From the IMG/VR virus record IMGVR_UViG_3300013099_000002, positions 1-64,000 of that record: a stretch of 64,000 nucleotides of DNA. The stretch is one strand, 5' to 3'. This stretch comes from a virus. Below are positions 267 through 33,412 of the stretch, piece by piece. Numbering within the stretch: position 1 is the stretch's first letter; each line of letters begins with the position of its first letter. A model generated the notes under the pieces. That model was given only the letters and a program-made list of their open reading frames with translations, searched no databases and was not told the origin of the DNA. Made by a program: the position numbers and the translations under genes.

Positions 267-563
267 TTAATATAGTCCTTCGCTATACAGTTCTTTTATT
301 TCACCACCATTCCTTTCTACATCCAATGATTGCTTATTACCAAGCACAATTTCCATAGCCTCAAATCTATCCATGAAGGTTCCAAACTGGTCAATAAATC
401 CTTGTATTTCTTTATCCGGTGGTAATTGGTCTTTGTTTATAAATCTCAAAATCTTATGCATTCGCTTATCGTAATGCCTTGCACTACAGATAATTAATTC
501 ACCGTACTTAATAGCGGCACAAACCACCACCCGTTTTCTACCATTTTCAGTTAATCGCACCAT
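267..563 (-). CDS. conserved phage hypothetical protein
   Basis: 98 aa; VVCAAI...RH...QGF...ELYSE motif pattern typical of a widespread phage family; overlaps the polA stop. Confidence 0.6.
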   Translation of the reverse strand: MVRLTENGRKRVVVCAAIKYGELIICSARHYDKRMHKILRFINKDQLPPDKEIQGFIDQFGTFMDRFEAMEIVLGNKQSLDVERNGGEIKELYSEGLY

Positions 564-2971
564 TCTGTATTCTCCAATTCAAGTTCTTCTAATTCAGCCA
601 TGTTATTTATACCTATTTCTATATCTACAGAAAAGGGTATTTGGTGGTTCCACCCGAACACCTTTTTAAGTGGCAAGTTTTCCATAGTATCCTTCATCCT
701 GTGTGCCCATAATTGAACTTCATCTTTAGGAACATAAGCAGTTATAGAATCATGGGTAAATCCATTAACCCAAAGTTCAGGGTATTTTTTGCTTAATTTA
801 GCAATCGCATATAAACCAATATCAGATAAAGTTGATTGCACCGGTGCATTGATAGCTTGACGTTCCTGCTTTGCCACAACAGACCTGTCGTATGAGTTTA
901 TTAAGGGTAGGTGCCTAATGCGCCCCAGTGGGCTTCTAACAAACCCATTCGCATGTGCATAAGCTATGTATTCCTCATGGTACATTAATATTCGTGGGTT
1001 TTGCTCAAAGAAAGTATCCCGAAACTTAACCGCTTCTTTTAAGGTTAAATCAACACCATAAGTTTTCTTGGCATAGATAACAAACCCCTCTGCAGACATT
1101 CCATAAATAAGTCCAAAGTTTCCAGCTTTGCCACCTTGTCGAATCATCTTTATGTCAGGATGTTTTTCTGCTTTCATTGCCAATGCTTCTTCCAGCTCAA
1201 TACCGTAAACTGAAGCACCGGTTATTAAATGCATATCTATACCTTTACGGTAAGCATTCAACATATTTTCTTCATTAGATATACAAGCCATTACCCTAAG
1301 TTCACCTTGAGAGTAATCGCCATTTAATATCACCATATCTTTAGGCGGTGTATAAACCGTTCTAAGAGGTTTTGCCCATATTGTATGTTTTGGTATTGTT
1401 TGATAGGCAGGGTCTTTTGCAGATGTTCTTCCGGTTACTGTACCGGCATCATCCCCTGAATCACCGTACTCACCTTTATGAAGCATATAAGTTGGATGAA
1501 ACTTACCATCTGTACGAAGATGTTTTAGAAACCCAACAATATAAGTAGACATTGTTTTAGAAGCAGAATTGTAGGCTGATAATAATTCCACCAATTCCTT
1601 AACCTTCTCATATTTTTTTCCTTTCTTATGCGAAAGTTGAATAATATGCTCCATTGCAGTTGAAGGCTTACCGGTTTTTTCCGTCACCATAATAGGTGTA
1701 AGCTTCAACCCATGGTGGTTATTAAATAGATAGTCCTTTATCATTGAGGGGCCTATAGGACTTTTTGTTTTGCTATGTTTTACCCTAAGTTGCATCGGCA
1801 TAAATGCTTTAGCCGTGTTGCTTGTTCGTGTAATTTCTTCTTGGACTTGATGACGTAGTACCTCGTATTGAGCAACGTCAACAACCATACCCCTTTGCTC
1901 CATAATTTGAATAGCTTTTGTTGCTGGATGTAAAAGCTTAATATAGAAGTTACGCAAAGCGGTATCTTTTCCCAATAATTTTTTAAGTGATTTACCAACT
2001 TGTAAACCAGCATCAGTATCGCCACCAGCATAATTAAGCAAATCGGTATCATTAACCAAATCCATTCGAGACTTGTCAATTTTGGCGTTGAATTCGTCAT
2101 CATAACCTCCAATCCTAGTGTATATTTTAGCGTGGTTGTTTAAACTATTTGAGCGGTTTTCATCCAACAATGAACCTACCAAAGTGGTATCCATTTTAAA
2201 AGAACTAAATTTAGTTATACCCCAGTGGTTCTGCATCCAGTTCATATCAAATTTAAAATTAGCACCCTTTAAGTTTATTATCTTTGAATCAACCAACCAT
2301 TTTATCTGCTTCAATAACATTACATTTATAGGCTGTATATTGGGTTCTAAGGTGTCGTAAAATTTACCTGCCGGTTGTTTATCATCATTAGCAGAATCGA
2401 AGCGTATAAGGTGCGCCTGACCGTTTTTAAAAGTAACTGATATGGAAACAATAAACACCCCATCTGTCCAAGGGTCTAAACCAACGGTTTCTAAATCTAT
2501 TGATATTTCTACAGGATGTTTAGTTTCTTTATTTATTCTTTTTATTTCTGATATGGTTTCAGTAAAATCATCCACCCATTTATACTCACCAAGAACCGGT
2601 TGTAGTTTTCCGGTTAATGCTTTCCTAATACATAATTTAACATCCCAAAGAAGTTCAGGCTTCTTACCATAATCCACCTCAATTATTGAAGGTGAATAAG
2701 TAAAGAACATTGAGCATTTACCAGAATGCAGTTTTAATTCTTTGCCACGCATGGAGCCGATTTTTCTACCCTTTGGAAGAAGCGAAGCCTTCTGTATAAT
2801 TTCCAAAGCTTGTTGCCCCATACCTAGTACAACATCCCCGTGTTGCATCTTCGGTAAGGTGTTTCCAATTGGAACCTGAATAAACTCCATTCCACAGTTA
2901 TAAAGTGCGGTTCCAATTGCTTGTTTAAGTGTTGCTGGGTGTGCTGAACTCCAAAGTAATAATCTAGGCAT
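551..2971 (-). CDS. polA: DNA polymerase family A with 3'-5' exonuclease and a degenerate N-terminal UDG-like domain
   Basis: ExoI DLET, ExoII NFKFD, ExoIII YAGGD; motif A DYSQGELR, motif B RQGGKAGNFGLIYG, motif C THDS. Confidence 0.95.
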   Translation of the reverse strand: MPRLLLWSSAHPATLKQAIGTALYNCGMEFIQVPIGNTLPKMQHGDVVLGMGQQALEIIQKASLLPKGRKIGSMRGKELKLHSGKCSMFFTYSPSIIEVDYGKKPELLWDVKLCIRKALTGKLQPVLGEYKWVDDFTETISEIKRINKETKHPVEISIDLETVGLDPWTDGVFIVSISVTFKNGQAHLIRFDSANDDKQPAGKFYDTLEPNIQPINVMLLKQIKWLVDSKIINLKGANFKFDMNWMQNHWGITKFSSFKMDTTLVGSLLDENRSNSLNNHAKIYTRIGGYDDEFNAKIDKSRMDLVNDTDLLNYAGGDTDAGLQVGKSLKKLLGKDTALRNFYIKLLHPATKAIQIMEQRGMVVDVAQYEVLRHQVQEEITRTSNTAKAFMPMQLRVKHSKTKSPIGPSMIKDYLFNNHHGLKLTPIMVTEKTGKPSTAMEHIIQLSHKKGKKYEKVKELVELLSAYNSASKTMSTYIVGFLKHLRTDGKFHPTYMLHKGEYGDSGDDAGTVTGRTSAKDPAYQTIPKHTIWAKPLRTVYTPPKDMVILNGDYSQGELRVMACISNEENMLNAYRKGIDMHLITGASVYGIELEEALAMKAEKHPDIKMIRQGGKAGNFGLIYGMSAEGFVIYAKKTYGVDLTLKEAVKFRDTFFEQNPRILMYHEEYIAYAHANGFVRSPLGRIRHLPLINSYDRSVVAKQERQAINAPVQSTLSDIGLYAIAKLSKKYPELWVNGFTHDSITAYVPKDEVQLWAHRMKDTMENLPLKKVFGWNHQIPFSVDIEIGINNMAELEELELENTEWCD

Positions 2972-3411: not shown

Positions 3412-3632
3412 GGTTTTATCTCCTTAATCAGTACGGTGGTTTGCTTGGCATTTAGATGCATACGAAAGTCACACAACCAAACCCCGAAGAAGGATAAAGA
3501 AAAAATAAGACCATCCTTATTAGCTTCGGTGCATTGCCATAATACTTTTTCAAGTGATAGGCCTTTAAATAAAGTACATAGCTCAAAGACATCACCAACT
3601 TTCATAGCGTAATATTGTTTTAAAGTAATCAT
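3408..3632 (-). CDS. hypothetical protein
   Basis: 74 aa, ATGA-coupled on both sides. Confidence 0.55.
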   Translation of the reverse strand: MITLKQYYAMKVGDVFELCTLFKGLSLEKVLWQCTEANKDGLIFSLSFFGVWLCDFRMHLNAKQTTVLIKEIKP

Positions 3633-4387
3633 GCGCCTTTACCGCAAATTAAGGATAAGTCCGGCATAGGTGTTTCAAGTTTGGGTATCCCCGAAAGAAT
3701 AGCCCCCAGTGTCCGTTTAGCCATAACAGTTGTACCTACATCCAAGTGTATTGAAACATAGCCATTTTCCGCAGGGTCAACATTCAACCCAGCTATCTTT
3801 AATTCAGAAATAAATTTCAACACATTCCCCTCAACCCGAACAGATAATGTAGTGTTCTTATACCGTGCCGCTACCTTTAGGTCTGTAGATAACCCAACCA
3901 CATGATATACCGAAGAACCTGTGGTTGAAGATACAGGTTGATACATGGTTGTAGCATTAGATAAAGCTATCTTTTTATCTTTCATGTGAGCGGCAAAATC
4001 GACACCTGCAACCAAAGGTTTATTTTTTATTAAACCCCCTTCCGACATTGGTAGTACTGAAGGTGCTTTAGGTAATTTTGATGGTGATGTAAATTTTACA
4101 GAACCATTTTGCTTAACATAGGTTAATGCTTCAGCAAGTGCCTTTTTTATCTTATAACTTAATGCCTCCTTAGATGCTGAACCCAAGGTGCCAGATGTTG
4201 CCATGGATAAGGCACCAGCTTTAACAGGTACGGTTTGAATCACTATACCATCAAATAAGAACTGGATAGTATTGGTGGTTGTTTTTAAAGTACCGCCACA
4301 TTTAAGCAGTTCTTCGTATATGGCTTCCGAACAATTGAAAGCCTGTATTAGTTTAATTGGATTTTTTTGTTTCACGATAATAGCCAT
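3629..4387 (-). CDS. hypothetical protein
   Basis: 252 aa; first gene after promoter 4431-4458; SD within CCACGGAGG. Confidence 0.7.
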   Translation of the reverse strand: MAIIVKQKNPIKLIQAFNCSEAIYEELLKCGGTLKTTTNTIQFLFDGIVIQTVPVKAGALSMATSGTLGSASKEALSYKIKKALAEALTYVKQNGSVKFTSPSKLPKAPSVLPMSEGGLIKNKPLVAGVDFAAHMKDKKIALSNATTMYQPVSSTTGSSVYHVVGLSTDLKVAARYKNTTLSVRVEGNVLKFISELKIAGLNVDPAENGYVSIHLDVGTTVMAKRTLGAILSGIPKLETPMPDLSLICGKGA

Positions 4388-4430
4388 TAGTTTTTCCTCC
4401 GTGGTATAAAATAATTAGATAACAGTTTTT

Positions 4431-4458
4431 ATTGTACGCATATAATTTTAATTGTCAA
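4431..4458 (-). promoter_or_regulatory. conserved early promoter
   Basis: TTGACA-16-TACAAT. Confidence 0.85.
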
Positions 4459-4464
4459 ATTTAT

Positions 4465-5094
4465 TTACCAGATAGATAAAGAGGATTGCATACAGTCAAC
4501 TTCAAAGGTTGAGCTGAATTGCTTGGTTGGAATTGCTGATACATTATTTTTTCCAAAATCAGAATCATAGAAAGAATAATCCTTTGTTGCCTTTACTTTG
4601 TTTATGCCGAATTCTTCATGCAGGTATTCAATCTGTTTTTGTGACTCTACAGCCTTCTTACAGTAGTTATCCCGAACGTAAGTAACTGCCTCCTTATCAT
4701 TGGTTACGTTTTTATATAAAGCGGCTAATACAAGCCCTGTTCGACCATGCCCACCTATACAACCTATATGTATTTTCTGATTTGCAATCAATTGCACTGA
4801 GAGCCATTCAATTAACTTTTTAAATTCAACTGTATCTTTAGGGGTTCCCATATCCTGAATGAAGAATCCTATTTCGTGTCCAGCACTCCAAGGGTATTCC
4901 TTTTCAGTTAATTTCATGGAGGTGTCAAGACCTACATAAATATCAGCGTCAAGGTGTATTGGTTTGGAACACGAACCACCATAGACAAAGTAATTTTTAC
5001 CTTCAATAGTGATAGGTAGTGCTGGGTGTGATTCACAACACCGTTTGTGGGTAGAGGTGAAACCTATAGAGGTTGCCGGTTTTTTATAACTCAT
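4465..5094 (-). CDS. Cys-based (PTP/dual-specificity) phosphatase
   Basis: CX5R P-loop IGCIGGHGRTG; downstream AVESQKQ Q-loop. Confidence 0.85.
   Translation of the reverse strand: MSYKKPATSIGFTSTHKRCCESHPALPITIEGKNYFVYGGSCSKPIHLDADIYVGLDTSMKLTEKEYPWSAGHEIGFFIQDMGTPKDTVEFKKLIEWLSVQLIANQKIHIGCIGGHGRTGLVLAALYKNVTNDKEAVTYVRDNYCKKAVESQKQIEYLHEEFGINKVKATKDYSFYDSDFGKNNVSAIPTKQFSSTFEVDCMQSSLSIW
4783..4796. repeat. 14-bp inverted repeat, copy 1 (in PTP CDS)
   Basis: TGCAATCAATTGCA. Confidence 0.9.
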
Positions 5095-5096
5095 AG

Positions 5097-6158
5097 TTAT
5101 GCCCTTATCATTTTTACTTTTTTAACTTTCTCAATTGGTGTGACTTGGAACCAAGTTTTGTTTTCTTCGTTCAAGGCCAAATCAGCTTGAAGTTGTTTTA
5201 TTTCTTGTGCCTTTTTAATAGTGGCAAGTTTATCGGCATGGTTTTTAGGTACCCCATATTTTTTAACTTGTTCCTTTTGTAGAGAAACATAATTTTGAAC
5301 CGCCCCTAATTGTTCAACCATAAACCAATCCACGTAGCCGGAAACAGATTCGCCTAATATGGCTTGTGCCTGTAATCGGAAGTCTCGGTGTGTATTATTT
5401 ATAAAGGGGGATTCATTACCATCAATTAATTGAGGTATCTGCCCAGCACGTTGTACATCTAAAATCTTTACAATCTCATAAGAATCGTAAGATGAGAACA
5501 ACATTCCTTTATTAAATATAGGCCCGTTATTGTGACAAAGAGTGAAGGCGGTATCCATCATCATTTCAGCAGAATAAACCCCTGTAACGAAGTTGTGGAG
5601 GCATTGAGTCACCTCCCCCCATGCCTTACCACCATACCCACCGGAAAAACTACCTTCATTAAATAAATCCAATAAGTGTCCGGTGTATCTCCCAAGTATA
5701 AATAAGTGGGTAGTTTCTCTAAATCGTTTTACGGCACCGGTGGAGGATTCATGGCTTATTGATTTAGTAAATTGAATAGGGTCATCACCATGTTTTTTAG
5801 CCGCCCCTGACCAGTCGTAGTCATCGTAAACATGCCTTGATTCCCGTGTACAAATCAAAAGTAAATAATAGAACATACGAACCGCTGATTTAGATAATTC
5901 CTCTTGGTAACGCATAACCAGAATTAACTTATCTCCTAGTGGTTCGTGTTTTCCTGTGGAGGCCATCACTTCAGATAAAATATGATTAGTTAAATAAAAA
6001 TTTATTGCCTCTTCTTCTGGCACAGCATATTTAGATTGATTATCCATGTAATCATTCATAGCAGTTACAAGCCCATCAACCGGCACCATGCTTTTATCTA
6101 AGTGTTGAGTCATTGGCCTATTCATTTGCATTGCCAATGTATCTTGTTCAAGTTTCAT
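5097..6158 (-). CDS. hypothetical 353-aa, probably helical protein
   Basis: Own promoter and CACGGAGG SD; conserved-looking motifs CTRESRH, GGYGGKAW, CHNNG. Confidence 0.75.
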   Translation of the reverse strand: MKLEQDTLAMQMNRPMTQHLDKSMVPVDGLVTAMNDYMDNQSKYAVPEEEAINFYLTNHILSEVMASTGKHEPLGDKLILVMRYQEELSKSAVRMFYYLLLICTRESRHVYDDYDWSGAAKKHGDDPIQFTKSISHESSTGAVKRFRETTHLFILGRYTGHLLDLFNEGSFSGGYGGKAWGEVTQCLHNFVTGVYSAEMMMDTAFTLCHNNGPIFNKGMLFSSYDSYEIVKILDVQRAGQIPQLIDGNESPFINNTHRDFRLQAQAILGESVSGYVDWFMVEQLGAVQNYVSLQKEQVKKYGVPKNHADKLATIKKAQEIKQLQADLALNEENKTWFQVTPIEKVKKVKMIRA

Positions 6159-6190
6159 TTAGACCTCCGTGAATTGCATATCTAAGACTT

Positions 6191-6218
6191 ATTGTACTGA
6201 TATAATTTTAATTGTCAA
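6191..6218 (-). promoter_or_regulatory. conserved early promoter
   Basis: TTGACA-16-TACAAT. Confidence 0.85.
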
Positions 6219-6225
6219 ATTTAAT

Positions 6226-6714
6226 TTACATTAGCCTAACAAGGTCTCTAATATCATCCACATTTAGTTTTTCTACATAATCCATTTGCTGTTTAGTTTC
6301 AACTGCGTGTGATAGGTATTCAAGTCGGGTAAATTGTACCGGTTCTAAATGAGGATACATCACCTTAACCAAACAGGCTATAAATAATCCAGTTCTACCA
6401 ATTCCACCCAGGCAACCAACATAAATAGCTTCACCTTTATGCATAGCTACCATTGTTTTTATTAACCCACGCCTTAACTGCTCAACATTAGGAACCGAAT
6501 AATCTTCAGTCGGAACACTAACATCAAAAGGTAGGTTTATTTCTTCTGCCATTTTCACACCAAACTTATCAGATGGTCTTGCCATATAGGGGCCTCCAAA
6601 TACGAATGCCGCCCTACCACTTGGTAATTGAAAGACAATATACCCGTTATGCCCACCTTGGATATAATCACCCTCATAGGGGTACAAAGTGTTAAATGCT
6701 TCTAATAGTGCCAT
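6226..6714 (-). CDS. second Cys-based (PTP/DSP) phosphatase
   Basis: VGCLGGIGRTG P-loop; AVETKQQ Q-loop. Confidence 0.85.
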   Translation of the reverse strand: MALLEAFNTLYPYEGDYIQGGHNGYIVFQLPSGRAAFVFGGPYMARPSDKFGVKMAEEINLPFDVSVPTEDYSVPNVEQLRRGLIKTMVAMHKGEAIYVGCLGGIGRTGLFIACLVKVMYPHLEPVQFTRLEYLSHAVETKQQMDYVEKLNVDDIRDLVRLM

Positions 6715-6805
6715 TGGTTTTTTCCTCAGTTGTTTTATATGAATACGTTGCTGGGTACAAATTGGTAAAGCTTTGCGCCATCATTTACTCCGTTTAGTAT
6801 TTCTA

Positions 6806-6833
6806 ATTGTACTTGAATAATTTTAATTGTCAA
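6806..6833 (-). promoter_or_regulatory. conserved early promoter
   Basis: TTGACA-16-TACAAT. Confidence 0.85.
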
Positions 6834-7244
6834 TTATCGTTTAGCTGAACAATCTGGACAAGGTATCATACCTCGCACATCCCCCTTACCATTACAGCGT
6901 TTGCATCCATCCCCATAACAAACAGGGCATTCTTCATAAACCGTTATTCTTTTGGAATCATCACACGAATTACATTTTATTAAATGTAAGCCTATTAGAG
7001 TGCGTCTCTTGACTAAAAAAACCCAATCCTTATATCGCATATTGCCGTGGAAGTGTTTGGTCTTTACAGCCAACCACAAGGCTTCTCGTAATTGAATCAA
7101 AGTATCTTTTGAACAATCACCAAAACCTAGTAAGGTTGCCTTGTGTAAAACGTCATCAGTAATGTTCAAGTCAGATAACCTGTCAACTTCATTCCGCTTC
7201 TGCATTCGCTTTTTCCTTTTCGGCTTCACGCCATAATTTACCAC
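6834..7244 (-). CDS. protein with C-terminal DnaJ-type CxxCxGxG zinc finger
   Basis: CNSC..CPVCYGDG-CKRCNGKG..CPDC; true start may be the internal MQKRN. Confidence 0.65.
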   Translation of the reverse strand: MVNYGVKPKRKKRMQKRNEVDRLSDLNITDDVLHKATLLGFGDCSKDTLIQLREALWLAVKTKHFHGNMRYKDWVFLVKRRTLIGLHLIKCNSCDDSKRITVYEECPVCYGDGCKRCNGKGDVRGMIPCPDCSAKR

Positions 7245-7503
7245 GTAGAATTTTCAGTGTAAGTGGTGCATCAATTACCGCCTTAACCACCTCCTTTGTA
7301 ATATCCACATTATCACCAGCAGAAACTCTCACATTAGGTAAAATTTCTGTTTGATTCCTGTCAGTAATTTCGTAGATTTTATCAATACTTTTTCCAATTA
7401 CTTTAAGCTTATATCGTTTGCTGTGGTAAATCCGTTCAACCTTTACCTGAATATCATTAATATAAAAATCTGAAGTTGAGTATAAAGATATTGCTAAGGC
7501 CAT
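7189..7503 (-). CDS. CsrA/RsmA-like RNA-binding protein (apparently two CsrA-like halves)
   Basis: C-terminal VKAVIDAPLTLKILRGKLW aligns by eye with CsrA VRIGVNAPKEVSVHREEIY (A-P and the R44 equivalent kept); N-terminus resembles CsrA strands 1-3. Confidence 0.55.
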   Translation of the reverse strand: MALAISLYSTSDFYINDIQVKVERIYHSKRYKLKVIGKSIDKIYEITDRNQTEILPNVRVSAGDNVDITKEVVKAVIDAPLTLKILRGKLWREAEKEKANAEAE

Positions 7504-7504
7504 G

Positions 7505-7954
7505 TTATGCTCCCAATTTTAATAAAGTTACTGCTATGTTGGTTAGCTTCCAAGTGGAACCACCAACCTTCCCCTTAGCACTTTCAACTTTTTCAATCAA
7601 ACCTTTGTGTTGAAGTACCATCATTTTGCTTGCAGTCAAACTGCTTTTTTCTTTTACTTGACCAGCCACGGTTCCCGTTAAAATATCTTCAGGGTATCTT
7701 GATGCAATTACCCCTAAATAGATTGATAAGTTGCTACCTTTTTCCGGCAATACAACCTTAGTTCTTGGTACAGTGTGCATGATAATACCGTTAGCGGTTT
7801 CTTCATACACAACCCGTAAATACCCACATATACATTTAAGGGTTAAAGTTTGTTGTGATTCCTGCTCATACCAAGCTTGATTAGCACGGCAATGAGGGCA
7901 TGTTTCAAAGCTCATAATTTTACCTAATTTAGTGTTTGACTCCATTAAGTTCAT
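7505..7954 (-). CDS. Zn-ribbon plus winged-HTH protein
   Basis: CPHC..CICG; C-terminal TGTVAGQV..LTASKMMVLQHKGLIEK wHTH pattern. Confidence 0.55.
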   Translation of the reverse strand: MNLMESNTKLGKIMSFETCPHCRANQAWYEQESQQTLTLKCICGYLRVVYEETANGIIMHTVPRTKVVLPEKGSNLSIYLGVIASRYPEDILTGTVAGQVKEKSSLTASKMMVLQHKGLIEKVESAKGKVGGSTWKLTNIAVTLLKLGA

Positions 7955-7972
7955 TATACCAGTCCTTGCCGG

Positions 7973-10105
7973 TTATCCCAGCGTTTTGTGAATGAGTGCA
8001 TGGTTACTTATTGATGTAGGAACCGTGTTAAATTCCTTACCGGATTTTGCCGCCATAGATAAAAGTTTAATTGTTAGCTCCGAAGAACCAATGTTTTTTT
8101 CAAGTTCAGGTGTTTGTTCTATGTACCCATCTGCATCAAGAACATCCCCCAAAGTTGTTAGTTGTTGTGCCACCTCCCAACCCTCTGTAACCAAAGAATC
8201 CAATAAATCCTTATCGGTTTCGGCAGGTAGTAGCAAACAATAGTCTTTTTTGGATGATGAGACATGCGTGTTAAGGGTTTCTATTTTTTTACGCATAACC
8301 TCATAGGGAGAATCAAAAACATCCCCAAACGCGCCCATAAAGGCTTTATCAGAATCAGACAAGTAGGAGTGTTTGAGGGTCATATCCAAAAACACCTTGA
8401 CACCTTCCCCTATCGTAAGGTTTAAAAGTAATGATTGTATCCCGTCATCACCAGATAAATTGAAAGTATCAATGTAAGTATCTTCAGTTAAGGAAAGTGC
8501 TTCTCCATTATAATCAGTTATTCGGTTAATAGTTCCTTTTTGTTTAGTTATGCAATTCAATAATGATTTAGCTTCATTTGATAATTCCCCCATCGTAATA
8601 GGAACCTCAATACCAAACCAAACATTGCCAGTTTTTCCATCAATAGTAATTAAATCACCTTCTTTAACCGCACATTTACCAAGCTTCCAAGCCCCGTAGC
8701 CAAGTTCGTGTAGTTCGGTGCAACCAACCACACAAGACTTATTTAAACCCCTTGCCACAACAGCGGCATGTGAAGTTGCTCCACCGGTTTGAGTTAATAT
8801 GCCAACGCAAGCCTCCATTGCCTCAATATCATCCGGTGTAGTTTCCTTTGCAATTAAGATTGCATCCCCAGTGCAATTGATTGCAAACTCAGCAGATAAG
8901 GCAACGATACCGGAAACAACTGAACCCGAAGCAGGTATTCCTGTGCCGGTAGGTTTCACTTTAAATGAAGGATTAATGTTTGCCTGTTGCAGTAATTCAA
9001 ACTCTTTATAGGATACCCGTTTAAGTGCTTCTGTTTTAGTTATTATCTTTTCAGAATACAGGTCATAAGCAATTTTAAATGCAGCTTGGGCAGACCGTTT
9101 ACCGTTTCTGGTTTGAAGGATATAAACCTTCCCATTTTCTATAGTAAATTCAATGTCCTGCATATCTTTATTGTAAGCTTCCAATCGTTGTGCAATTTCC
9201 AACAATTCCAGCTCCACCGTTTCATTCCATTCAGCCATTTTATATAGTGGGTCAGGTGTTCGGATACCGGCAACAACATCTTCGCCTTGTGCATTAACCA
9301 AGTATTCTCCAACCGTCCCAATATCGCCCGTATTAGCACACCTAGTAAACAATACACCTGAACATGAATTATCATTCAAGTTACCAAAAACCATGGCTTG
9401 TATCGTTACAGCGGTACCCCATTCATCTGAATAGCCATGCATTTTACGATAATGTTTGGCGCGTGGATTATTCCAGCTATCCCAAACCGCCACAATAGAA
9501 TCACGTAGCTGGTCATAAAGTGGAACCTCAAAGCAAGAATCCACCTGAAAATGATTACCATAAATTGCTTCATAATCAGTAACCACCTTAGTTAAATCAT
9601 CTTCGGTCAAATCCGAATCTTCAAGAACCCCTTTTGTCTTGGATAGTGCATCTTCAAACAGTTCAGAATCAATACCGTAAGCGGTGGTTCCCATCATTTG
9701 CATTAGTCTACGTTTAGAATCCAACATAGCCCTGCGCCCCAAGCGTTCCTCCCAAAATGGTTCCGATTCCTCAGTAAGCCCAACATTCAATATAGTGTCC
9801 ATCATGCCAGGCATTGATACCCTTGCCCCAGACCGAACGGACAATAAAGGATGGAACCCATATAATTCTTTTAGCCAAGTTATCTGCTCAATAACATGGG
9901 TCATAGTTTCATTAATTATTTCTGCTTTTTTAAATTTAGGTGCATTCAAATAGTGCATACAGGCGGTAGTTGGAATAATGAATCCTGCCGGTACCGGTAT
10001 TTTTAGGTTTGCAATTTCACATAAACCAGCACCCTTTCCACCCAATGTATTGATTTGAGCTTTGGTACCAGATGCGCCATTTTTACTAAAGTTAAATATT
10101 TTCAT
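7973..10105 (-). CDS. ppdK: pyruvate phosphate dikinase-like protein lacking the PEP/pyruvate-binding barrel
   Basis: LGGKGAGL, LLSVRSGARVSMPGMMDTILNVG, QGEDVVAGIRTP, DIEFTIE..LQTR; phospho-His motif GGATSHAAVVARG; last ~205 aa unrelated to the PPDK C-domain. Confidence 0.85.
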   Translation of the reverse strand: MKIFNFSKNGASGTKAQINTLGGKGAGLCEIANLKIPVPAGFIIPTTACMHYLNAPKFKKAEIINETMTHVIEQITWLKELYGFHPLLSVRSGARVSMPGMMDTILNVGLTEESEPFWEERLGRRAMLDSKRRLMQMMGTTAYGIDSELFEDALSKTKGVLEDSDLTEDDLTKVVTDYEAIYGNHFQVDSCFEVPLYDQLRDSIVAVWDSWNNPRAKHYRKMHGYSDEWGTAVTIQAMVFGNLNDNSCSGVLFTRCANTGDIGTVGEYLVNAQGEDVVAGIRTPDPLYKMAEWNETVELELLEIAQRLEAYNKDMQDIEFTIENGKVYILQTRNGKRSAQAAFKIAYDLYSEKIITKTEALKRVSYKEFELLQQANINPSFKVKPTGTGIPASGSVVSGIVALSAEFAINCTGDAILIAKETTPDDIEAMEACVGILTQTGGATSHAAVVARGLNKSCVVGCTELHELGYGAWKLGKCAVKEGDLITIDGKTGNVWFGIEVPITMGELSNEAKSLLNCITKQKGTINRITDYNGEALSLTEDTYIDTFNLSGDDGIQSLLLNLTIGEGVKVFLDMTLKHSYLSDSDKAFMGAFGDVFDSPYEVMRKKIETLNTHVSSSKKDYCLLLPAETDKDLLDSLVTEGWEVAQQLTTLGDVLDADGYIEQTPELEKNIGSSELTIKLLSMAAKSGKEFNTVPTSISNHALIHKTLG
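8872..8885. repeat. 14-bp inverted repeat, copy 2 (in PPDK CDS)
   Basis: TGCAATTGATTGCA. Confidence 0.9.
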
Positions 10106-10134
10106 GTTTCCTCCGTGGTGTTAATGTAGGTCTA

Positions 10135-10162
10135 ATTATACTTACATAATTTTAATTGTCAA
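10135..10162 (-). promoter_or_regulatory. conserved early promoter
   Basis: TTGACA-16-TATAAT. Confidence 0.85.
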
Positions 10163-10550: not shown

Positions 10551-11153
10551 TTAGTTCCCGAAGGAAATGTTACCAAAGCCATTTTCAGTTATCTCCAAAT
10601 ATAGATTACTTACCTTAACAGCCAATTCATCTAAATTAGGGCTGTCATTTATAAAACGAATATCCCCCTGCATTTCCCCATTACCATTCCAGAAACGCAC
10701 CCCATTCTCCGAAGCATGTTGATTGCTCTCTATTTCTTCAGAATCCGGTCTTTCAATATGGACTATAACACCACCAAGCTTACGAATCCATGAAGCCTCA
10801 TTATTGAATCTAACATCTGTTATCACCATAGTAAATTCGGTGTCACATTTCAATTGAGTTAAATGTAATTCTGCACGTCTAATCCAAAAATCATTTCTAA
10901 ATACATTCCTTGCACATTCAGTACCAAGCAATTGTAGCATTTCTCTTCGACTGAAACCCCAGTAGGTTACTTCTTCTTCTCGGTCAGGAAACGCCCCATA
11001 AAATTCCTCAACAGGTAGACCAAACATTTCAGAAGCCGCCCTTCTTAACGGGTCTGCAAAACCATAGCATCCGGTGTTTTTAAATTCCTGTAAGGTCATA
11101 TTAATAGTATCTTTTCCAGCTCTTGCTTTACCAGCCAAACCAATCAATCTCAT
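10551..11153 (-). CDS. deoxynucleoside monophosphate kinase
   Basis: IGLAGKARAGKDT P-loop, FADPLR, REMLQLLGTE, ITDVRFNNEA, HASE. Confidence 0.9.
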   Translation of the reverse strand: MRLIGLAGKARAGKDTINMTLQEFKNTGCYGFADPLRRAASEMFGLPVEEFYGAFPDREEEVTYWGFSRREMLQLLGTECARNVFRNDFWIRRAELHLTQLKCDTEFTMVITDVRFNNEASWIRKLGGVIVHIERPDSEEIESNQHASENGVRFWNGNGEMQGDIRFINDSPNLDELAVKVSNLYLEITENGFGNISFGN

Positions 11154-12657
11154 TATAGTTCCCTTAGTTGTTTTAATATAGATTTAATAAAGCCACAAAA
11201 TGCATAAGTTACCCATATAGGCCATAAAACCACAACAATAACCCCATCTACCCAATCAGGTTTAGGGTACCCAGACCTTTTATTTTCGTAACAATGTCGC
11301 TTGTTTAATAAGATGGCAACAATACACCCTATAAATAAATAATGAATTATCATAGTTCTACCTTTTTAGCTTTAACAAATAAATTATTTTCAAAAATAAG
11401 TTCGTAGTTCGGTACTGCATCACCTTCAATTAGTTGTTCAAATAAATCACTTATGCCAGTGTATTCGATACCACCATAAGCAAACATGTATTCAGCCCGA
11501 ACTACAACCACATTACTGAATACACTCAAACATAATTCTGGGTTTGTTTTTATCTCCTTATCCTTAATAGTAAACATCCCAACTCTTTTACTCCATTGCT
11601 CGGCATCCTTGCCTTTTGCAATGAGTTTAATATCAGCTACCGTTATCGCCATCGGATTTTTCAACAACTTCGTCAACTTTATTTGCTTCAGCTAATGCCT
11701 TTTGTTCGTTACGTGCCTTTTCAAATTCATGTTCAGTCGAAGCCACAATCATTACAGCACTGGCTGTATTTAAAAATCTACCTTCTGCTATTTGCACAAC
11801 ACCGAAGCGTTTAAATTCTCTACAAGCCGCCTGTTTGGTGTAAGCAGATACCATGTGATTAACGGTAAAGCTTTTTATTCCATCCTCTAACGCCATCGCT
11901 GGAAATATACCAGTTACCACAAATTCCTGCATGTCCTTTTTTACTTTATTTTTACTCACGTTCTTAGCCTCGCTATTTCGATTAAAAAGTTTAATTCATC
12001 TAAAAGTTTTTTGTTTCCACCCATTGACCTATCGACACAACTTAACCCTCGGATGAAAGAAGGTAAATTGTGACCACCATTAGCCCAAGCATGTTGAACA
12101 AGTATAGCTAGTGGTGGGTATTTTTCTATTTCAGATGCATACCTATCAGTGAGTCGTTTTTTCTTTAGAATCCGTACTGCCACATTGACCTCCACAGTGA
12201 GGAAGAATCATATTACCCTTTGAACAACCCTCATGTTCATATCCTACGGGGTCAGGTGCCATGATACCAGATTCTTTACGTACATCTTTAGCAAGTTCAT
12301 TTTCGGGTCGTAAAGCACCCTGTAAGCCACATTCTGCACATCGTAAAAACACGCCCCCAGCTTCAACAACTTCACTGATAGCTATTATCTCTTCTTGACA
12401 AGATTTACAGGGTTGTGAAGCTGGTACCTTCTCACATTCCAATACTGGTTGCCATGGGCTTATATGCCCCTTATACCCCTGCTTTATTACAGACCTTTCT
12501 GCCCTTTTGACTTCACCTCGGTTAGCGTAAAGCCATTGCCCATTATCAAGTTGTGCTTTTTTTAATACACCTATAGTCAACTCATCACCATCACCGCCAC
12601 AACGTAGACAGAAAGTTAAGTGAGGCTCAAGGCCTCCTTCTTTACTAATTGGAATGT

Positions 12658-13349: not shown

Positions 13350-14285
13350 CTACATAATCTGACGGTATTGAGTCCACCCCTTGAAATTGCCTGACCACCA
13401 GTTACCCTCAAGGTCTCTATGAGTCGCCCCTATTGGTGGTACGTCTGGGTCATTATTAAGCATAAGTTTGGCTACATGCTCAAAAGGGCTCATGTGCCTT
13501 ACTGCCGCCAAATCATCATGCAGTTTAATATCTGATAAGTAATCCGGTTGTGACTTATCATGGTTTAAATAAGAAACTCTCGCACATCTACCGGATGAAA
13601 CAGCACAAAGCTGGTCAAGTGTAACGTCCCCATTGTAGTATCTTTCATAATCAGCATCCTGTAAGTAAGGTAAGTGGGTATAAGGGTCTGAATTGTTCTT
13701 GTTCATCATTCCATTAACAGGCCTTTCAGGTGTACTGAAATTCATAGCTGAACGCATACAGTTTGCCAGTTCTTGAATTTCAGGTTGAGCATCCGGTGCT
13801 ATTCGTAACCCGAAGAAGTTATCCCATTCTGTTGCAGTAACCACAACTTTAATAAATTGATGAGATTCTGTTAATCTGTTTACAACTTGTTTATGGTACC
13901 CAGCTTTATTGAATGCATCAGCAAATATAGCTTTATCTTTTCCGGCAAGTTCCCACGCTTCTTGTGGAGAATACTCCTTCCCCATAATAAACACCGGTGT
14001 ATCTTGTTCACCATCTGCTTCCATACCGGCTTTATTTTTTCCCCAATGAACAGGTGTAGCTGGTTCGTTATTTATATTATCAAGTACCCGTTTCACTGGA
14101 ACCGCTCTACTGCTTGAAGCATTACGGCTAAATACTCTATGGGTCATAAATTCCGCATGGATATATCTATGATATTTTAATTCCAAGGTAAATAGCTCTG
14201 GTATATCTGGATAAAGTGGATTGCTTGAATGTTCAACCACTTTTGCATAGATACCGCCCTCACCTTCAACTGTCGTTTTGTACAT
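13350..14285 (-). CDS. thyX: flavin-dependent thymidylate synthase
   Basis: EFMTHRVFSRNASSSRA signature; LRIAPDAQPEI; HMSPFEH. Confidence 0.9.
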   Translation of the reverse strand: MYKTTVEGEGGIYAKVVEHSSNPLYPDIPELFTLELKYHRYIHAEFMTHRVFSRNASSSRAVPVKRVLDNINNEPATPVHWGKNKAGMEADGEQDTPVFIMGKEYSPQEAWELAGKDKAIFADAFNKAGYHKQVVNRLTESHQFIKVVVTATEWDNFFGLRIAPDAQPEIQELANCMRSAMNFSTPERPVNGMMNKNNSDPYTHLPYLQDADYERYYNGDVTLDQLCAVSSGRCARVSYLNHDKSQPDYLSDIKLHDDLAAVRHMSPFEHVAKLMLNNDPDVPPIGATHRDLEGNWWSGNFKGWTQYRQIM

Positions 14286-27776: not shown

Positions 27777-29669
27777 TTATTGCCCCCCTTTCATGTTATC
27801 TGCCGCAGCTTGTGATTCCAACGCGCCTACAACCGACTGAGGTACCTTATTGAATGAAATACCATGCTTAAACCAAAGTTCTTTACGGGTCGTTAATCCA
27901 TACACTACCCCACCTAATGAATCTGATACATCTTTTGTAGATGTACTGGGGTGGTCAATCTTCCCCTTCTTCTGGTCAATCTCCAAAGACAATAATTCAT
28001 GCTTCAGTTTAGGATGTTCCGGTGTAGTTAATCTGCCATCATAAATACAAGTCTTGAGAATATTATAGGGCATCGTGGTTCTGTCTAATGAGATTAAACC
28101 CGTTTTATATCCCTTCACACGAAGTATCTGTAAAAAATCTGACGACTGAAAACTATCCAAGCTTACCCATTTAATGATTACCCCATATTCCGATAGCTTA
28201 TAGATTAGAGACCGCAACTTATGGAACTGAATCTCATCCCCTTTCGGTGGTTCAATCTCCAAGGTGAAGTCCATCTTTATGTTCGGTAATATTTCGTTTT
28301 CTAGCTCCCCACGTTTTATAGATTTAAAGTTCTTTATGTAGCCCATACTTATACCGGCACTATCTCCGGTCAATGCCAAATCTAAATGCACCCAGCGCGG
28401 TTCTTGTAAATCCCGAAAGCGGTCAGGATAAATAGCTAATTGAGTATCCTTGAAATCAACCAACTCCCTTGATAAGATGGATAAATGATTAGGTTGGAAT
28501 GCTTCCGCAACTTTCTCAGTATTCACCATGAAAGGATGTTTCGCCAAGGTACTGACACCAGCAATTTCCCTCAATGAGTTCATTATATCGGTCTCGAATT
28601 CCGTTCTGTATTCCACCGGCACAGATATTACTAATTCAAGTTCATCTTTGTGTCGTTTCAAGTCCTTTTCATTTTTAAGTATATAAGGCTTCTTGGATTC
28701 ATCCCCAATAAATACATTGAATCTGCCACCTAAAAATCTATCAGGCGGTATAACATCCCACGAACGCTTATCATAAACATAAATGGTAGTTTTGCCGTCT
28801 CTCTCAATCTCGGTTTCTGCTTCATCCATCTTAATATCCGTAAACTGACCAGGATACCGTTTTGAAGAAACCAAACACAATACTCCAGGCAATGAGCCCT
28901 TGCTCATAAACCTAGATTTTCTTCTTCGTGCCAATGAGTTGTACAGGGCTACCGCTTGGTCGTATGTACCTCCATCTACACTGTTTTTAGACCGCTCAGT
29001 AACCGCCATGTAGTTTAATTCATCAATCACACCGCCTATTACATTTTGCCCTATAGCGGCTGTCTCTTGCCCCGATACAGGTATCACTTCTATTCTGTTT
29101 GGAAACTTTAATTTCGATTCAAGATTCTTATCGAACATAAAATGCTTAGTGAAATATTCACTGTTTTCAACCATGGCTTTAAATCGTGCAAAGTCAACCT
29201 GCTTGGCTAACCCTGCATTTATTGATTGGAAGATGAATATTATCTCTGATGCTGGGTCAAGCCCGAACTGTTCGTGGGGGGTTCTTAGGCATGATAATAA
29301 ATATAATTGATAAGCGGTAGTATACAAGGCTAACGTGGTCTTACCACAACCAATAGAGCCTGTAAGTACCGCTTCAGTATACTTACCGTTATTCAGTTCC
29401 AGCATACATTTCATTATTTCTGGATACAGAGCGTTTGGGGTTCCTAACAAGGTATCTTCCGCAATAAACACGTTTGCTGGTACCGGTAAGCGTTTATATT
29501 TCTTTTCTATTTCGGATACTATACCGTGGTGCCTTGCCTTCAATATCTCCAAGAAAAATTCTTTATGATATGGAGGTATTTCGGTATCAATTATCTGATT
29601 AATTCTATCATTTTTAATTTGCTGGTTCGACTTCTTCAAAGACACCACTATCTCCTTGTATAACTTCAA
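27777..29669 (-). CDS. terL: terminase large subunit
   Basis: Walker A GSIGCGKT, Walker B GGVIDE; RNase H-like HLDLALTGD...KDVSDS. Confidence 0.85.
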   Translation of the reverse strand: MKLYKEIVVSLKKSNQQIKNDRINQIIDTEIPPYHKEFFLEILKARHHGIVSEIEKKYKRLPVPANVFIAEDTLLGTPNALYPEIMKCMLELNNGKYTEAVLTGSIGCGKTTLALYTTAYQLYLLSCLRTPHEQFGLDPASEIIFIFQSINAGLAKQVDFARFKAMVENSEYFTKHFMFDKNLESKLKFPNRIEVIPVSGQETAAIGQNVIGGVIDELNYMAVTERSKNSVDGGTYDQAVALYNSLARRRKSRFMSKGSLPGVLCLVSSKRYPGQFTDIKMDEAETEIERDGKTTIYVYDKRSWDVIPPDRFLGGRFNVFIGDESKKPYILKNEKDLKRHKDELELVISVPVEYRTEFETDIMNSLREIAGVSTLAKHPFMVNTEKVAEAFQPNHLSILSRELVDFKDTQLAIYPDRFRDLQEPRWVHLDLALTGDSAGISMGYIKNFKSIKRGELENEILPNIKMDFTLEIEPPKGDEIQFHKLRSLIYKLSEYGVIIKWVSLDSFQSSDFLQILRVKGYKTGLISLDRTTMPYNILKTCIYDGRLTTPEHPKLKHELLSLEIDQKKGKIDHPSTSTKDVSDSLGGVVYGLTTRKELWFKHGISFNKVPQSVVGALESQAAADNMKGGQ

Positions 29670-30225
29670 TTAAACTACCAATAACCGAATCGACCTTCCC
29701 GTAAGTTAGTTCAACTTTATTGTTTACTGGTTCCTGTAGTATTAACGTGGCATCATCCACCATACCTAGAGCCTTACGCTCATTCTCAACACCGAACCGC
29801 ATAAAATCTAACGCTTCCCTAACAGATAATTTATCTGGGTCTACCTTATCAATCTTAGCCATTGCCTTCATCATAACTTTACGAGACAAAGCTAAATGCC
29901 GTTGCCGTACTGCAAGCTCATCATTGATATTTTTTGCTTGTAGTTTCGCTATTGCCTTCTTCTTATTCCCAAGCAGTAAAGCTTCATCCACCGCATCTTG
30001 TCCTTCGGCAAACATCCCATTTAATTCTTCATACCATTTTTCTTTTGCCGCCCGATTCTGCAAAGTACCAATGTTTAGCTTATGTTTAGCCGCCAACTTC
30101 AAAAAGGTCATGCTGTTTTTCTTTTCAAGATTGCATTTAAAGAAATCAGCTTTTATATCATCCCATGGTATCTTTGCAGTATAGGCATTTTTTACCCTAT
30201 TTTTTTTGATTATCTTTATAGGCAT
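29614..30225 (-). CDS. terS: terminase small subunit (putative)
   Basis: N-terminal HTH (LAAKHKLNIGTLQNRAAKEKW), helical remainder, directly upstream of TerL. Confidence 0.65.
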   Translation of the reverse strand: MPIKIIKKNRVKNAYTAKIPWDDIKADFFKCNLEKKNSMTFLKLAAKHKLNIGTLQNRAAKEKWYEELNGMFAEGQDAVDEALLLGNKKKAIAKLQAKNINDELAVRQRHLALSRKVMMKAMAKIDKVDPDKLSVREALDFMRFGVENERKALGMVDDATLILQEPVNNKVELTYGKVDSVIGSLIEVIQGDSGVFEEVEPAN

Positions 30226-30235
30226 ATTATCCCCG

Positions 30236-30865
30236 TTAAGCGTTTTTGTCTTTTCTTAATCTAGTAATGGTTTTCTCTAATCTGGCTCGGTTCAGCTCAT
30301 TACCAACGAAAGACATATTATTATCTATACACGCTTGAGCCGTGTATCCCATACCACAACATAAGTCCATACCTAGCCCTCCATCAGCCGGTCTAAGCAA
30401 CTTAAATACTTCTCTTGTACATTTGTACCCTTTCAAGTGATAAATGGGCGTAGCATCCAATGGCATCTTCCCTTCGGTATGGAAGAATATAATCTCCATT
30501 GGTAAGTTTTGCCCAGAATATACGGTTTCAATCTGAGTACAATAAGTCAATCCTGCCTCTTCAGCAAAATCAATTACTTTTTGAATCCACCGCTTACCAT
30601 ATTCGATAACCACCCAACCTTCGGTTTTATCTGCGGCATGAGACAACACTGTTTTAAGGAATACATCCACATCGAAATTACCAGTTGAAGTGTCTATATT
30701 GTTCATCTTCTTATTCATGGTGTCCCAGTATTTTAAGTTACCAGAACCCCACGGAGGGTCTGAGTAATAAATATCTGCTTTACGGTTCCCGACAAGTGTA
30801 GCTATACCCTTCTCATCGTGAATATCTCCGTGTCGTATTCTGTGCTTGCCTATATTTTTAATCAT
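30236..30865 (-). CDS. compact N6A/N4C DNA methyltransferase (beta-like motif order)
   Basis: Catalytic SDPPW precedes SAM-binding DLCCGMGYT; FVGNELN; little room for a target recognition domain. Confidence 0.8.
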   Translation of the reverse strand: MIKNIGKHRIRHGDIHDEKGIATLVGNRKADIYYSDPPWGSGNLKYWDTMNKKMNNIDTSTGNFDVDVFLKTVLSHAADKTEGWVVIEYGKRWIQKVIDFAEEAGLTYCTQIETVYSGQNLPMEIIFFHTEGKMPLDATPIYHLKGYKCTREVFKLLRPADGGLGMDLCCGMGYTAQACIDNNMSFVGNELNRARLEKTITRLRKDKNA

Positions 30866-31590
30866 ACCTTTTTGCCTTTACGTTTAATAGTTACACCTTT
30901 AGAATTCTTCGGTGCAATTGATTGCAATTTTTCTGCTTCATTAAAGTTCTTTTTAATCTGCAGTTGTTTTTTGGTTTCCCACGCTTTTGCATAGTCAGTA
31001 TCCTCAAACAATTTGGAGAAACCGGTTACATGTTTAAGCTTTAATAGTTCTTCGGGTTCCATGCCCAACTCATTACAAATTTGAGCATCCTCCCAACCAT
31101 TATCAAGCATTTCAAATACCATGCTGGACATACCGTTTACAGAATGCTTCCCCCGTGCCCTATTATGGCGAACTGTTGAGGCCATTCTGTCATTGATGTT
31201 TGAGTTGATTACCACCACCGGTAACTTACCCAAATTCATTTCAGTAATATCCTTATTATTAAGCATAGTGAAGTATCTGTGAAACCCATCAACAATCACA
31301 TAGGTATCAGTTTCTTCATCGTGTATGGTCACTACAGGCTGTGTATAACCATCATGCTTGATAGATGTATGCAATAATTTTAATTCAACGGAAGCAACGC
31401 TATTAGGGTTGTAATCGTTTGGCTTAACTTTCGCAATATCCACCCACCGAATTAAATCTACCGGCTGATGTTTTCGTGGAGAAATACTGTTATGCAAATA
31501 TTCACGCAACTCATAAAGAAATGCATCTTTATCTTTTGCTGAATCGTAAGCCTCTTTTATTTCTTCTTTTAAGTGTTTTTTTATGCTCAT
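30862..31590 (-). CDS. ibrB: IbrB-like ParB/Srx-domain protein
   Basis: PNDYNPNSVA..ELKLL..SI..DGYTQPVV..IVDGFHR..RMASTVRHNRARGKH. Confidence 0.85.
   Translation of the reverse strand: MSIKKHLKEEIKEAYDSAKDKDAFLYELREYLHNSISPRKHQPVDLIRWVDIAKVKPNDYNPNSVASVELKLLHTSIKHDGYTQPVVTIHDEETDTYVIVDGFHRYFTMLNNKDITEMNLGKLPVVVINSNINDRMASTVRHNRARGKHSVNGMSSMVFEMLDNGWEDAQICNELGMEPEELLKLKHVTGFSKLFEDTDYAKAWETKKQLQIKKNFNEAEKLQSIAPKNSKGVTIKRKGKKV
30913..30926. repeat. 14-bp inverted repeat, copy 9
   Basis: TGCAATTGATTGCA. Confidence 0.9.
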
Positions 31591-33125: not shown

Positions 33126-33412
33126 TTCTCCTTAGCCTTATTTATAAGTCGGGTATATGGTGAGCCATCGGGTCTATTAAGTGGGCAGCCCATAGTCCAG
33201 TAACGGTACCCATCTATAATAAGTATAATATACTGGGTTTTGCCAAACATTACCTTTTTACCATTCTTTCTTATGTACATCACCACGGCACAAAATAAGG
33301 CATCATCCTCCCAATTTTTTCTTAAAGTATAATAGTGAGGATTCTTTGGCATAGACTTAGCGAACGTCCATTTTAATTTTTCAAATATTGCACCAACCTC
33401 TGGATTATCCAT
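33122..33412 (-). CDS. conserved phage protein
   Basis: WTFAKSMPKNPHYY...DGYRYWTMG...LINK. Confidence 0.65.
   Translation of the reverse strand: MDNPEVGAIFEKLKWTFAKSMPKNPHYYTLRKNWEDDALFCAVVMYIRKNGKKVMFGKTQYIILIIDGYRYWTMGCPLNRPDGSPYTRLINKAKEK

Follow-up and report, generated by a model that had tools for sequence, protein, structure and literature searches.

Introduction

The pairing of an ATP-grasp domain with a swiveling phosphohistidine (His) domain serves several dikinases and related phosphotransferases. Pyruvate phosphate dikinase (PPDK; EC 2.7.9.1; TIGR01828; structures 1KBL, 1DIK and 9PZL) follows these two domains with a C-terminal barrel, a domain that also forms the dimer in PPDK and in Enzyme I. 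In the starch phosphorylation cycle, the dikinases GWD and PWD are paired with SEX4 and LSF2, glucan phosphatases of the dual-specificity (DSP) type. Rifampin phosphotransferase (RPH) places a rifampin-binding domain between its ATP-grasp domain and a C-terminal His domain. In M. tuberculosis, VadK (Rv1127c), a truncated form of PPDK, phosphorylates itself on His422 and also binds metabolic enzymes (PMC13400623). Finally, thymidine hypermodification combines a 5-hydroxymethyldeoxyuridine (5-hmdU) DNA kinase with an amino acid:DNA transferase (aGPT-Pplase; PMC8989533). Here, we analyzed a 64,000-nt window of the IMG/VR virus record IMGVR_UViG_3300013099_000002 (complete genome, 89,837 bp), in which a 710-amino acid (aa) PPDK-like protein is encoded together with two cysteine phosphatases and a 353-aa protein. 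At least six phage genome papers and database annotations assign the PPDK-like gene to auxiliary metabolism, as a PPDK by which the phage boosts glycolysis in its host. We find that this annotation is wrong, and that the block may well be a conserved phage phosphate-transfer module on a PPDK chassis, with a phosphohistidine donor, a substrate-holding enzyme and two erasers, which is the explanation that we tentatively favor.

How does this block compare with the described systems? The resemblance to PPDK is the closest: the ATP-grasp domain, the swivel His domain, all known nucleotide-site residues and the TSH motif are shared, the domains follow each other in one order, and the linker still bears a third domain of the barrel type. 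However, the third domain of the phage protein has 214 aa rather than about 340 and does not match PF02896, and its gene is placed among phage replication genes, together with two phosphatases, rather than in central metabolism. Like VadK, the phage protein appears to be a PPDK derivative that has given up pyruvate/phosphoenolpyruvate (PEP) chemistry and kept ATP-dependent charging of its histidine, and partner proteins are implicated in both cases. VadK has two domains and about 490 aa, whereas the phage protein adds a folded 214-aa barrel remnant and has other neighbors, and by score it is nearer to true PPDK than to the VadK type (520 versus 394 bits). It probably arose independently of VadK.

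The other three systems are more distant. The starch cycle likewise joins a PPDK-type His-swivel dikinase to two cysteine phosphatases of the dual-specificity fold, in order to add phosphate to a polymer other than protein and to take it off again. The analogy is one of logic only: no carbohydrate-binding module was found on the phage proteins (Pfam finds only PPDK_N, PEP-utilizers and DSP-type domains), the phage acceptor site is not in the dikinase, and the context is DNA replication. RPH also reuses the ATP-grasp and His-swivel engine for a new acceptor, but the phage protein keeps the PPDK order and has no new acceptor domain. In thymidine hypermodification, as in our block, a kinase is found beside an all-helical enzyme that has a conserved Cys..Glu motif; it too occurs in phages with restriction-resistant DNA, and uses phosphate or pyrophosphate as a leaving group on DNA. 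The kinase of that system is, however, a P-loop enzyme. The block is a member of none of these families.

Results

A PPDK front end joined to a decayed barrel

The features at the center of this work are as follows, in the order of their transcription.

7973 to 10105, minus strand: PPDK-derived 710-aa protein, with an ATP-grasp domain, a swivel His domain with H446 in GGATSHAAVVARG, and a decayed barrel
7976 to 8617, minus strand: tail of the PPDK-like protein (residues 497-710), a small domain predicted to be TIM-barrel-like
6226 to 6714, minus strand: phosphatase 1, 162 aa, DSP/PTP fold, with GCLGGIGRTG
5097 to 6158, minus strand: 353-aa enzyme-like protein (PHROG 20946), with TRESRH, GGYGGKAW and CHNNG motifs
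4465 to 5094, minus strand: phosphatase 2, 209 aa, DSP/PTP fold, with GCIGGHGRTG; starts 2 nt past the 353-aa gene

Residues 13-498 of the PPDK-like protein align to residues 11-508 of Clostridium symbiosum PPDK (9PZL/1KBL) with an E value of 1.8e-116. The Pfam scan matched PPDK_N (PF01326; E 7e-47) and the PEP-utilizers mobile domain (PF00391; E 1.5e-22), with no match to PEP-utilizers_C (PF02896). These matches, and the presence of GGATSHAAVVARG, bear out the preliminary description of this DNA, which had read ATP-grasp and phosphohistidine swivel domains of the PPDK type from the sequence. The His domain is central in the protein (residues 386-498). The profile for true PPDK, TIGR01828, scored 520.2 bits against a cut-off of 843.45 and was covered only at positions 4-525 of 865; the profile for short, VadK-type "PPDK" (NF004531/PRK05878), a family of two-domain proteins with about 490-534 aa, scored 394.1 bits (cut-off 456), and that for RPH (NF041857) only 42.4 bits (cut-off 999).

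We aligned 62 proteins, the window protein and 61 distinct dikinases of related phage loci, and counted a column as conserved when at least 90% of the proteins agreed. The first 496 residues are strongly constrained, with 126 of 496 columns conserved, including K24, R91, D317/E319, Q331/R333, T444 and H446, and a mean identity to the relatives of 48%. As judged from the alignment, the ATP-grasp site and the catalytic swivel histidine are intact. The relatives are all 598-774 aa long, and none has the length of PPDK.

The tail contrasts with this front part. It is 214 aa long with a net charge of -15, and conservation is limited to 1 of 214 columns, which holds a linker proline; mean identity falls to 17%, and tail length ranges from 132 to 235 aa among the relatives, with only 132-165 aa in some of them. 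A comparison with the true PPDK barrel gave an hhalign probability of 0.4%, so that the sequence signal is gone, and when the tail alone was searched against 5.8 billion proteins its own sequence was the sole match. The AlphaFold2 model built from a 59-sequence alignment (pLDDT 92.9) is nevertheless an alpha/beta domain that resembles a TIM barrel. Foldseek returned only weak matches for this model, nearly all of them TIM barrels. In an exhaustive structural search the top match was the PEP-binding domain of PEP synthase (9dae_A; Z 9.1, 192 of 214 residues aligned), at a score tied with other barrels (such as dehydroquinase and the enolase superfamily), and Enzyme I reached Z 7.4-7.5. A second structural search was again topped by PEP synthase, in this case its C-terminal domain (8a8e_A; Z 9.0, 187 residues aligned), and also listed Enzyme I, pyruvate kinases and maize PPDK (Z 6.9, 196 residues aligned).

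The tail is thus a decayed barrel, not a pyruvate site and not a new acceptor domain. The preliminary description had called it an unrelated acidic tail of about 205 aa; its acidity stands, while the structural searches speak against an unrelated fold. The simplest reading of the model is that the ancestral barrel shrank, lost its active site and was retained as a folded scaffold. Since the barrel is down to 214 aa and has lost its conserved residues, PEP synthesis is not to be expected. This result contradicts the working PEP-binding domain claimed for a related phage protein (PMC12038007). The earlier suggestion that the gene is no simple metabolic gene agrees with the TIGR01828 score, which is far under the cut-off, and with a tail almost devoid of conserved residues, and both support the view that the 710-aa protein is not a plain metabolic PPDK.

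Two distinct cysteine phosphatases

Two intact cysteine phosphatases flanking the 353-aa protein had been proposed, and we located both motifs and found the catalytic residues conserved. When phosphatase 1 is aligned with 67 orthologs, 65-68 of the 68 proteins retain D71..P75, C101-x5-R107-T-G and E139..Q143. The corresponding residues of phosphatase 2 (D81..P85, C112-x5-R118-T-G and E150..Q154) are invariant in 65 aligned proteins (its own and 64 orthologs), and this protein has in addition its own conserved C19, H23 and C145. C-x5-R-[ST] is found in 66 of 67 orthologs of phosphatase 1 and in all 64 of phosphatase 2. Both have a conserved general-acid Asp about 30 residues before the P-loop and a conserved E/Q motif after it. 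On these residues, the two are distinct paralogs, each predicted to be catalytically intact.

The nearest solved relatives of the phosphatases are Tk-PTP/ShufPTP (E 1e-5 to 2e-4), followed by KAP and PRL. Pfam assigns them to Tc-R-P, PTP-SAK and PTP-NADK at bit scores of 22-32, near or under the 27-bit cut-off.

Phosphatase 2 is labeled "thymidylate synthase ThyX" in Stenotrophomonas phage DLP5 (DLP05_143; 11607-12395 of our locus L001), in DLP3 and in PHROG 17568. Because the labeled protein is a C-x5-R phosphatase, the ThyX label looks like an annotation error that spread.

A constrained all-helical protein between the phosphatases

The 353-aa protein belongs to a large family: one search found 663 relatives, and a second search, with clustering at 50% identity, gave 1817 clusters. 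The H/R motifs noted in the preliminary description (TRESRH, GGYGGKAW and CHNNG) are present, and about 45 residues, mostly polar, are invariant. They include N58, H59, R94, R105-E106-x-R108-H109, E198 and D202, and further H209-N210-N211-G-P, N216, K217, D234, Q236 and R237. The predicted structure is all-helical (pLDDT 92.3). Foldseek against the PDB gave a best E value of 0.58 with TM scores below 0.2, the VIA wide structural search a best Z of 4.7 with nothing convincing, and the viral structure library BFVD only the protein's own family; the ESM Atlas held no usable match. A Pfam scan of 39 members revealed no shared family (none matched more than one member), and a PDB profile search, NCBIfam and PADLOC gave no matches. 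The Pfam scan and the structural searches found no ligase, nucleotidyltransferase or kinase fold. Judged by its invariant residues and its model, the protein looks like a strongly constrained enzyme with an anion-binding site and a fold not yet solved.

Several candidate identities were considered. Fold and profile evidence supported none of the readings of the invariant E/H/D residues as a diiron site, an HD domain, a HEPN motif or a Fic motif, and these readings were dropped. Kinship with aGPT-Pplase is likewise unsupported, with hhalign probabilities of 0.5% against M6 gp51, 0.1% against gp55 and 0.7% against a profile of 35 gp51 relatives; the resemblances between RESRH and ERRH, and between HNNG and HMNG, are not significant. 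A search for longer relatives of the 353-aa protein returned P0201 (599 aa), which has an N-terminal extension without a Pfam domain.

Conservation of the gene order in related phages

We compared 82 loci, 80 from IMG/VR retrieved via the 353-aa protein and 2 from cultured phages. The 353-aa gene and both phosphatase genes occur in all 82, DNA polymerase I in 77, the dikinase in 76 and a 252-aa protein in 69. Gene order and strand are constant, and most absences are from loci that end at a contig edge. The conserved order is PPDK-like, phosphatase, 353-aa, phosphatase, 252-aa and DNA polymerase I. Stenotrophomonas phage DLP5 and Rhizobium phage RHph_Y1_11 are annotated with the identical order, which is also found in cultured Stenotrophomonas, Rhizobium, Rhodobacter and Vibrio phages. 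Moreover, of the 9 loci with the 353-aa gene in bacterial assemblies, 7 show the complete order up to the limits of their contigs. The order is maintained at protein identities of 28-61%, and the hosts span several proteobacterial classes and Acidobacteriota. The preliminary description had set, as a test of its proposal, whether the phosphatase and 353-aa genes co-occur with this dikinase in other phages; they do so in nearly every related locus.

Two genomes depart from this pattern in the dikinase itself. In the first, G001, a complete genome of 89,218 bp with terminal repeats, the dikinase is a 233-aa N-terminal stump without the His domain (7857-8558 of locus L011); the gene for a 104-aa protein follows directly, and then an intact phosphatase, 353-aa, phosphatase, 252-aa and polymerase series. 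In the second, G002 (locus L008), which is 87% complete, TAA and TAG stops split the dikinase, and the rest of the block is intact.

A rearranged copy lies in a 5-Mb chromosome of a Thalassobaculaceae metagenome-assembled genome (4735-10451 of locus L095). There, the His-swivel domain and the tail are fused to a truncated FAD_binding_3 monooxygenase domain in a 629-aa open reading frame. The genes after it encode a CsrA-like protein, one phosphatase, the 353-aa protein and a phage integrase; the second phosphatase and the 252-aa gene are missing. This copy is probably a decaying prophage junction. Matches to PPDK labeled "Listeria" or "Enterococcus phage" come from unverified contigs; in the only record inspected, that of Enterococcus Efs 1-1-1, the PPDK is full-length (881 aa) and belongs to a different family.

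Discussion

What would such a module do? According to the explanation that we favor, the 710-aa enzyme would charge its own histidine from ATP, as PPDK and VadK do. The His domain, tethered between two folded domains, would then swing to a second site that the barrel remnant can no longer form, and a partner protein that binds the true acceptor would most likely provide this site. With an invariant set rich in Arg, His and Asn, the 353-aa protein would be the best candidate for such a partner acting in trans. The two paralogous DSP-type phosphatases might remove phosphate from two different positions or intermediates, much as SEX4 and LSF2 reverse the glucan water dikinases. In favor of this explanation are the intact front end, the well-folded but unconserved tail, the tight synteny, the catalytic residues of both phosphatases, the size and constraint of the 353-aa family and a consensus promoter before each unit, with VadK as a precedent.

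Given its place in a block of replication and nucleotide genes, the module is less likely to act on a central metabolite than on phage DNA or a precursor nucleotide. The same cassette is present in the related phage DLP3, whose DNA resisted all 15 of the restriction enzymes tested (PMC7326821). This resistance and the position between a deoxynucleoside monophosphate (dNMP) kinase and DNA polymerase I favor DNA or nucleotides as the target. In a fuller version, a nucleic-acid analog of the starch cycle, phosphate or pyrophosphate would be written and erased while the genome replicates, either on phage DNA or on a precursor nucleotide, with the PPDK-derived protein acting as donor, the 353-aa protein holding the substrate or performing follow-up chemistry, the phosphatases trimming intermediates, and the whole underlying the resistance of DLP3. 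In this full form, the proposal is speculative, and we think it unlikely.

Several observations weigh against the explanation that we favor. Since G001 and G002 have no working dikinase, the phosphatase/353-aa core does not strictly depend on it. A search for longer relatives of the 353-aa protein found no fusion with a dikinase, which is weak evidence. All loci come from one broad phage lineage, and part of the synteny may reflect inheritance rather than shared function. The phosphatases are, by their sequences, nearest to small protein phosphatases (archaeal PTPs, KAP and PRL), and a protein target would fit these relatives and the example of VadK equally well. The resistance of DLP3 DNA could come instead from ParB-linked islands near the terminase genes, which are variable in these phages. 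A 5-hydroxymethyluracil (5-hmU) DNA kinase and a ThyA-type hydroxymethylase were not detected in the 89,837-bp genome with M6 gp54 and gp58 as queries, an empty result that proves little. A ThyX-like protein of 311 aa (window 13350-14285), longer than usual and scoring 49 bits against the TIGR02170 cut-off of 88, retains the T-H-R-x-x-S...S-x-R motif, which speaks against a simple link to DNA modification.

Could the dikinase instead regulate proteins? An autophosphorylating dikinase like VadK might dock on host or phage proteins, with the phosphatases serving as protein phosphatases in host takeover. VadK provides the precedent, since it autophosphorylates and binds metabolic enzymes (PMC13400623). 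In addition, NF004531 is matched at 394 bits, the nearest phosphatase relatives with solved structures are protein phosphatases, and a tail without a conserved pocket would suit a scaffold or docking role. However, NF004531 falls short of its 456-bit cut-off, and true PPDK, at 520 bits, is the closer match to the phage protein. Protein regulation also leaves unexplained why an invariant, enzyme-like 353-aa protein sits between the phosphatases and why the block has a fixed place beside DNA polymerase I and the dNMP kinase. We therefore regard it as an unlikely explanation, although one to be taken seriously.

We are similarly doubtful that the genes form no unit at all. The dikinase might be a PPDK relic that is decaying or that acts alone, for example in ATP/AMP/PPi turnover, with phosphatase, 353-aa and phosphatase as a separate group and the order kept by descent. 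This would account for genomes in which the dikinase is lost or broken while the remainder is intact (G001 and G002), and it is consistent with the restriction of the loci to one clade of 80-110-kb phages with the same polymerase, with four separate promoters in the block and with the joining of the 252-aa gene to the polymerase operon. Yet the 126 conserved columns in the front 496 residues indicate that the gene is not decaying in most genomes. Moreover, the order persists at 28-61% identity across phages of several proteobacterial classes and Acidobacteriota, and even the rearranged chromosomal remnant keeps the His domain and tail, a phosphatase and the 353-aa gene together.

A role in healing nucleic-acid ends seems less probable still. 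Here, the dikinase would phosphorylate 5'-OH ends, the phosphatases would clear 3'-phosphates or cyclic phosphates, and processing or sealing of the ends would fall to the 353-aa protein; host nucleases that cut tRNA or DNA would thereby be countered. The phosphatases match PTP-SAK and Tc-R-P of Pfam, and the PTP-SAK family has been described in RNA-repair gene neighborhoods; in DLP5, a DNA ligase gene precedes the dikinase by about 2.6 kb, and the module is placed in a replication block. But these Pfam matches are weak (22-32 bits against a cut-off of 27), the 353-aa protein showed no ligase, nucleotidyltransferase or kinase fold in our searches, and we know of no PPDK-type enzyme that acts on polynucleotide ends. 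Finally, a genuine auxiliary metabolic PPDK interconverting pyruvate and PEP, as put forward in the annotation and docking study of vB_VneS_J26 (PMC12038007), with which further phage papers agree, and as the barrel-like tail with its best match to PEP synthase might suggest, is very improbable given a tail of 214 aa in place of about 340 (132 aa in the shortest relative), no match to PF02896, an hhalign probability of 0.4%, one conserved tail column in 214 and a TIGR01828 score far under its cut-off.

Why does the function of this module matter? It is widespread, with about 1800 clusters for the 353-aa partner and examples in Vibrio, Stenotrophomonas, Rhizobium and Rhodobacter phages and in many uncultured phages. 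While its chassis and logic are already known from other systems, discovery of the target would establish a new use of the dikinase engine and might reveal a new nucleic-acid or nucleotide modification. It would also assign a function to a large protein family in phages under development for aquaculture and clinical use.

Neighboring genes and promoters

The minus strand carries every gene between 551 and 11153. Transcription runs from the dNMP kinase through the 710-aa PPDK-like protein, the 149-, 104- and 136-aa proteins, phosphatase 1, the 353-aa protein and phosphatase 2 to the 252-aa protein, downstream of which a run of 74-aa and 142-aa genes leads up to DNA polymerase I. The remaining features are listed below.

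10551 to 11153, minus strand: dNMP kinase, directly upstream of the dikinase
10135 to 10162, minus strand: promoter P1, TTGACA-16-TATAAT, 12 of 12 positions matched, with the conserved spacer ATTAAAATTAT; precedes the PPDK-like gene
7505 to 7954, minus strand: 149-aa protein, Cys-rich near its N-terminus as read from the sequence; starts 18 nt past the PPDK-like gene
7189 to 7503, minus strand: 104-aa protein with a CsrA-like C-terminus
6834 to 7244, minus strand: 136-aa protein with a CxxC-rich C-terminus like a DnaJ-type zinc finger
6806 to 6833, minus strand: promoter P2, 11 of 12 matched; precedes phosphatase 1
6191 to 6218, minus strand: promoter P3, 11 of 12 matched; precedes the 353-aa gene
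4431 to 4458, minus strand: promoter P4, 11 of 12 matched; precedes the 252-aa gene
3629 to 4387, minus strand: 252-aa protein (PHROG 25950); its gene overlaps the next gene
551 to 2971, minus strand: DNA polymerase I, with 3'-5' exonuclease and family A polymerase domains; the fixed downstream neighbor of the module

Homologs of the dNMP kinase were found in 12 loci, and in 9 of these the gene immediately precedes the dikinase. The three small genes after the dikinase are present in only 20 to 38 of the 82 loci (149-aa, 29; 104-aa, 38; 136-aa, 20) and are therefore not core. The 104-aa protein scores 17.7 bits against Pfam CsrA, under the cut-off; its homolog in the chromosomal copy (L095, 6545-6907) reaches 28.5 bits and clears the 27-bit cut-off, so that a CsrA-like C-terminus has some support. 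The 252-aa protein, whose gene is joined to the polymerase operon, is conserved in its C-terminal half, with Y161, R175, R184, S212, H214 and G228 invariant; it has no relatives in the PDB, Pfam or the Atlas. In DNA polymerase I, about 138 N-terminal residues before the 3'-5' exonuclease domain match no Pfam family.

Elsewhere in the window, positions 27777-34017 and 37220-37846 encode a ParB-N protein, a PAPS-reductase-like/DUF3440 protein and an APS kinase. Relatives have other genes beside ParB and terminase, such as an aminotransferase and a glycosyltransferase. This region could be a variable DNA-modification island separate from the dikinase block. Our literature search found no paper connecting a dikinase with phage DNA hypermodification, and a paper on T-dioxygenase and ParB does not mention the module.

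The block sequence itself gave no match in a megablast search of the region against a phage collection. A search of sequencing runs found the stretch only in contigs from sediment and marine metagenomes, and no RNA datasets with it were listed.

Four promoters of the form TTGACA-16-TA[TC]AAT occupy the gaps before the dikinase, phosphatase 1, 353-aa and 252-aa genes, all on the coding strand. With a promoter in each of the four gaps, the block consists of four transcription units with host-type promoters. The preliminary description had named four early promoters; their presence is borne out at 11-12 of 12 matched positions, and their early timing is no more than a supposition. Exact matches to TTGACA-N16-TAYAAT number 16 in the window, compared with 0.07 expected by chance, and all of them lie on the minus (coding) strand, between 232 and 55114. 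Most of these sites have the spacer ATTAAAATTAT in common. They make up a phage-specific family of promoters with the form TTGACAATTAAAATTAT-N-GTA[TC]AAT, in which the spacer is conserved, and 4 of the 16 sites fall within the 6.5-kb block.

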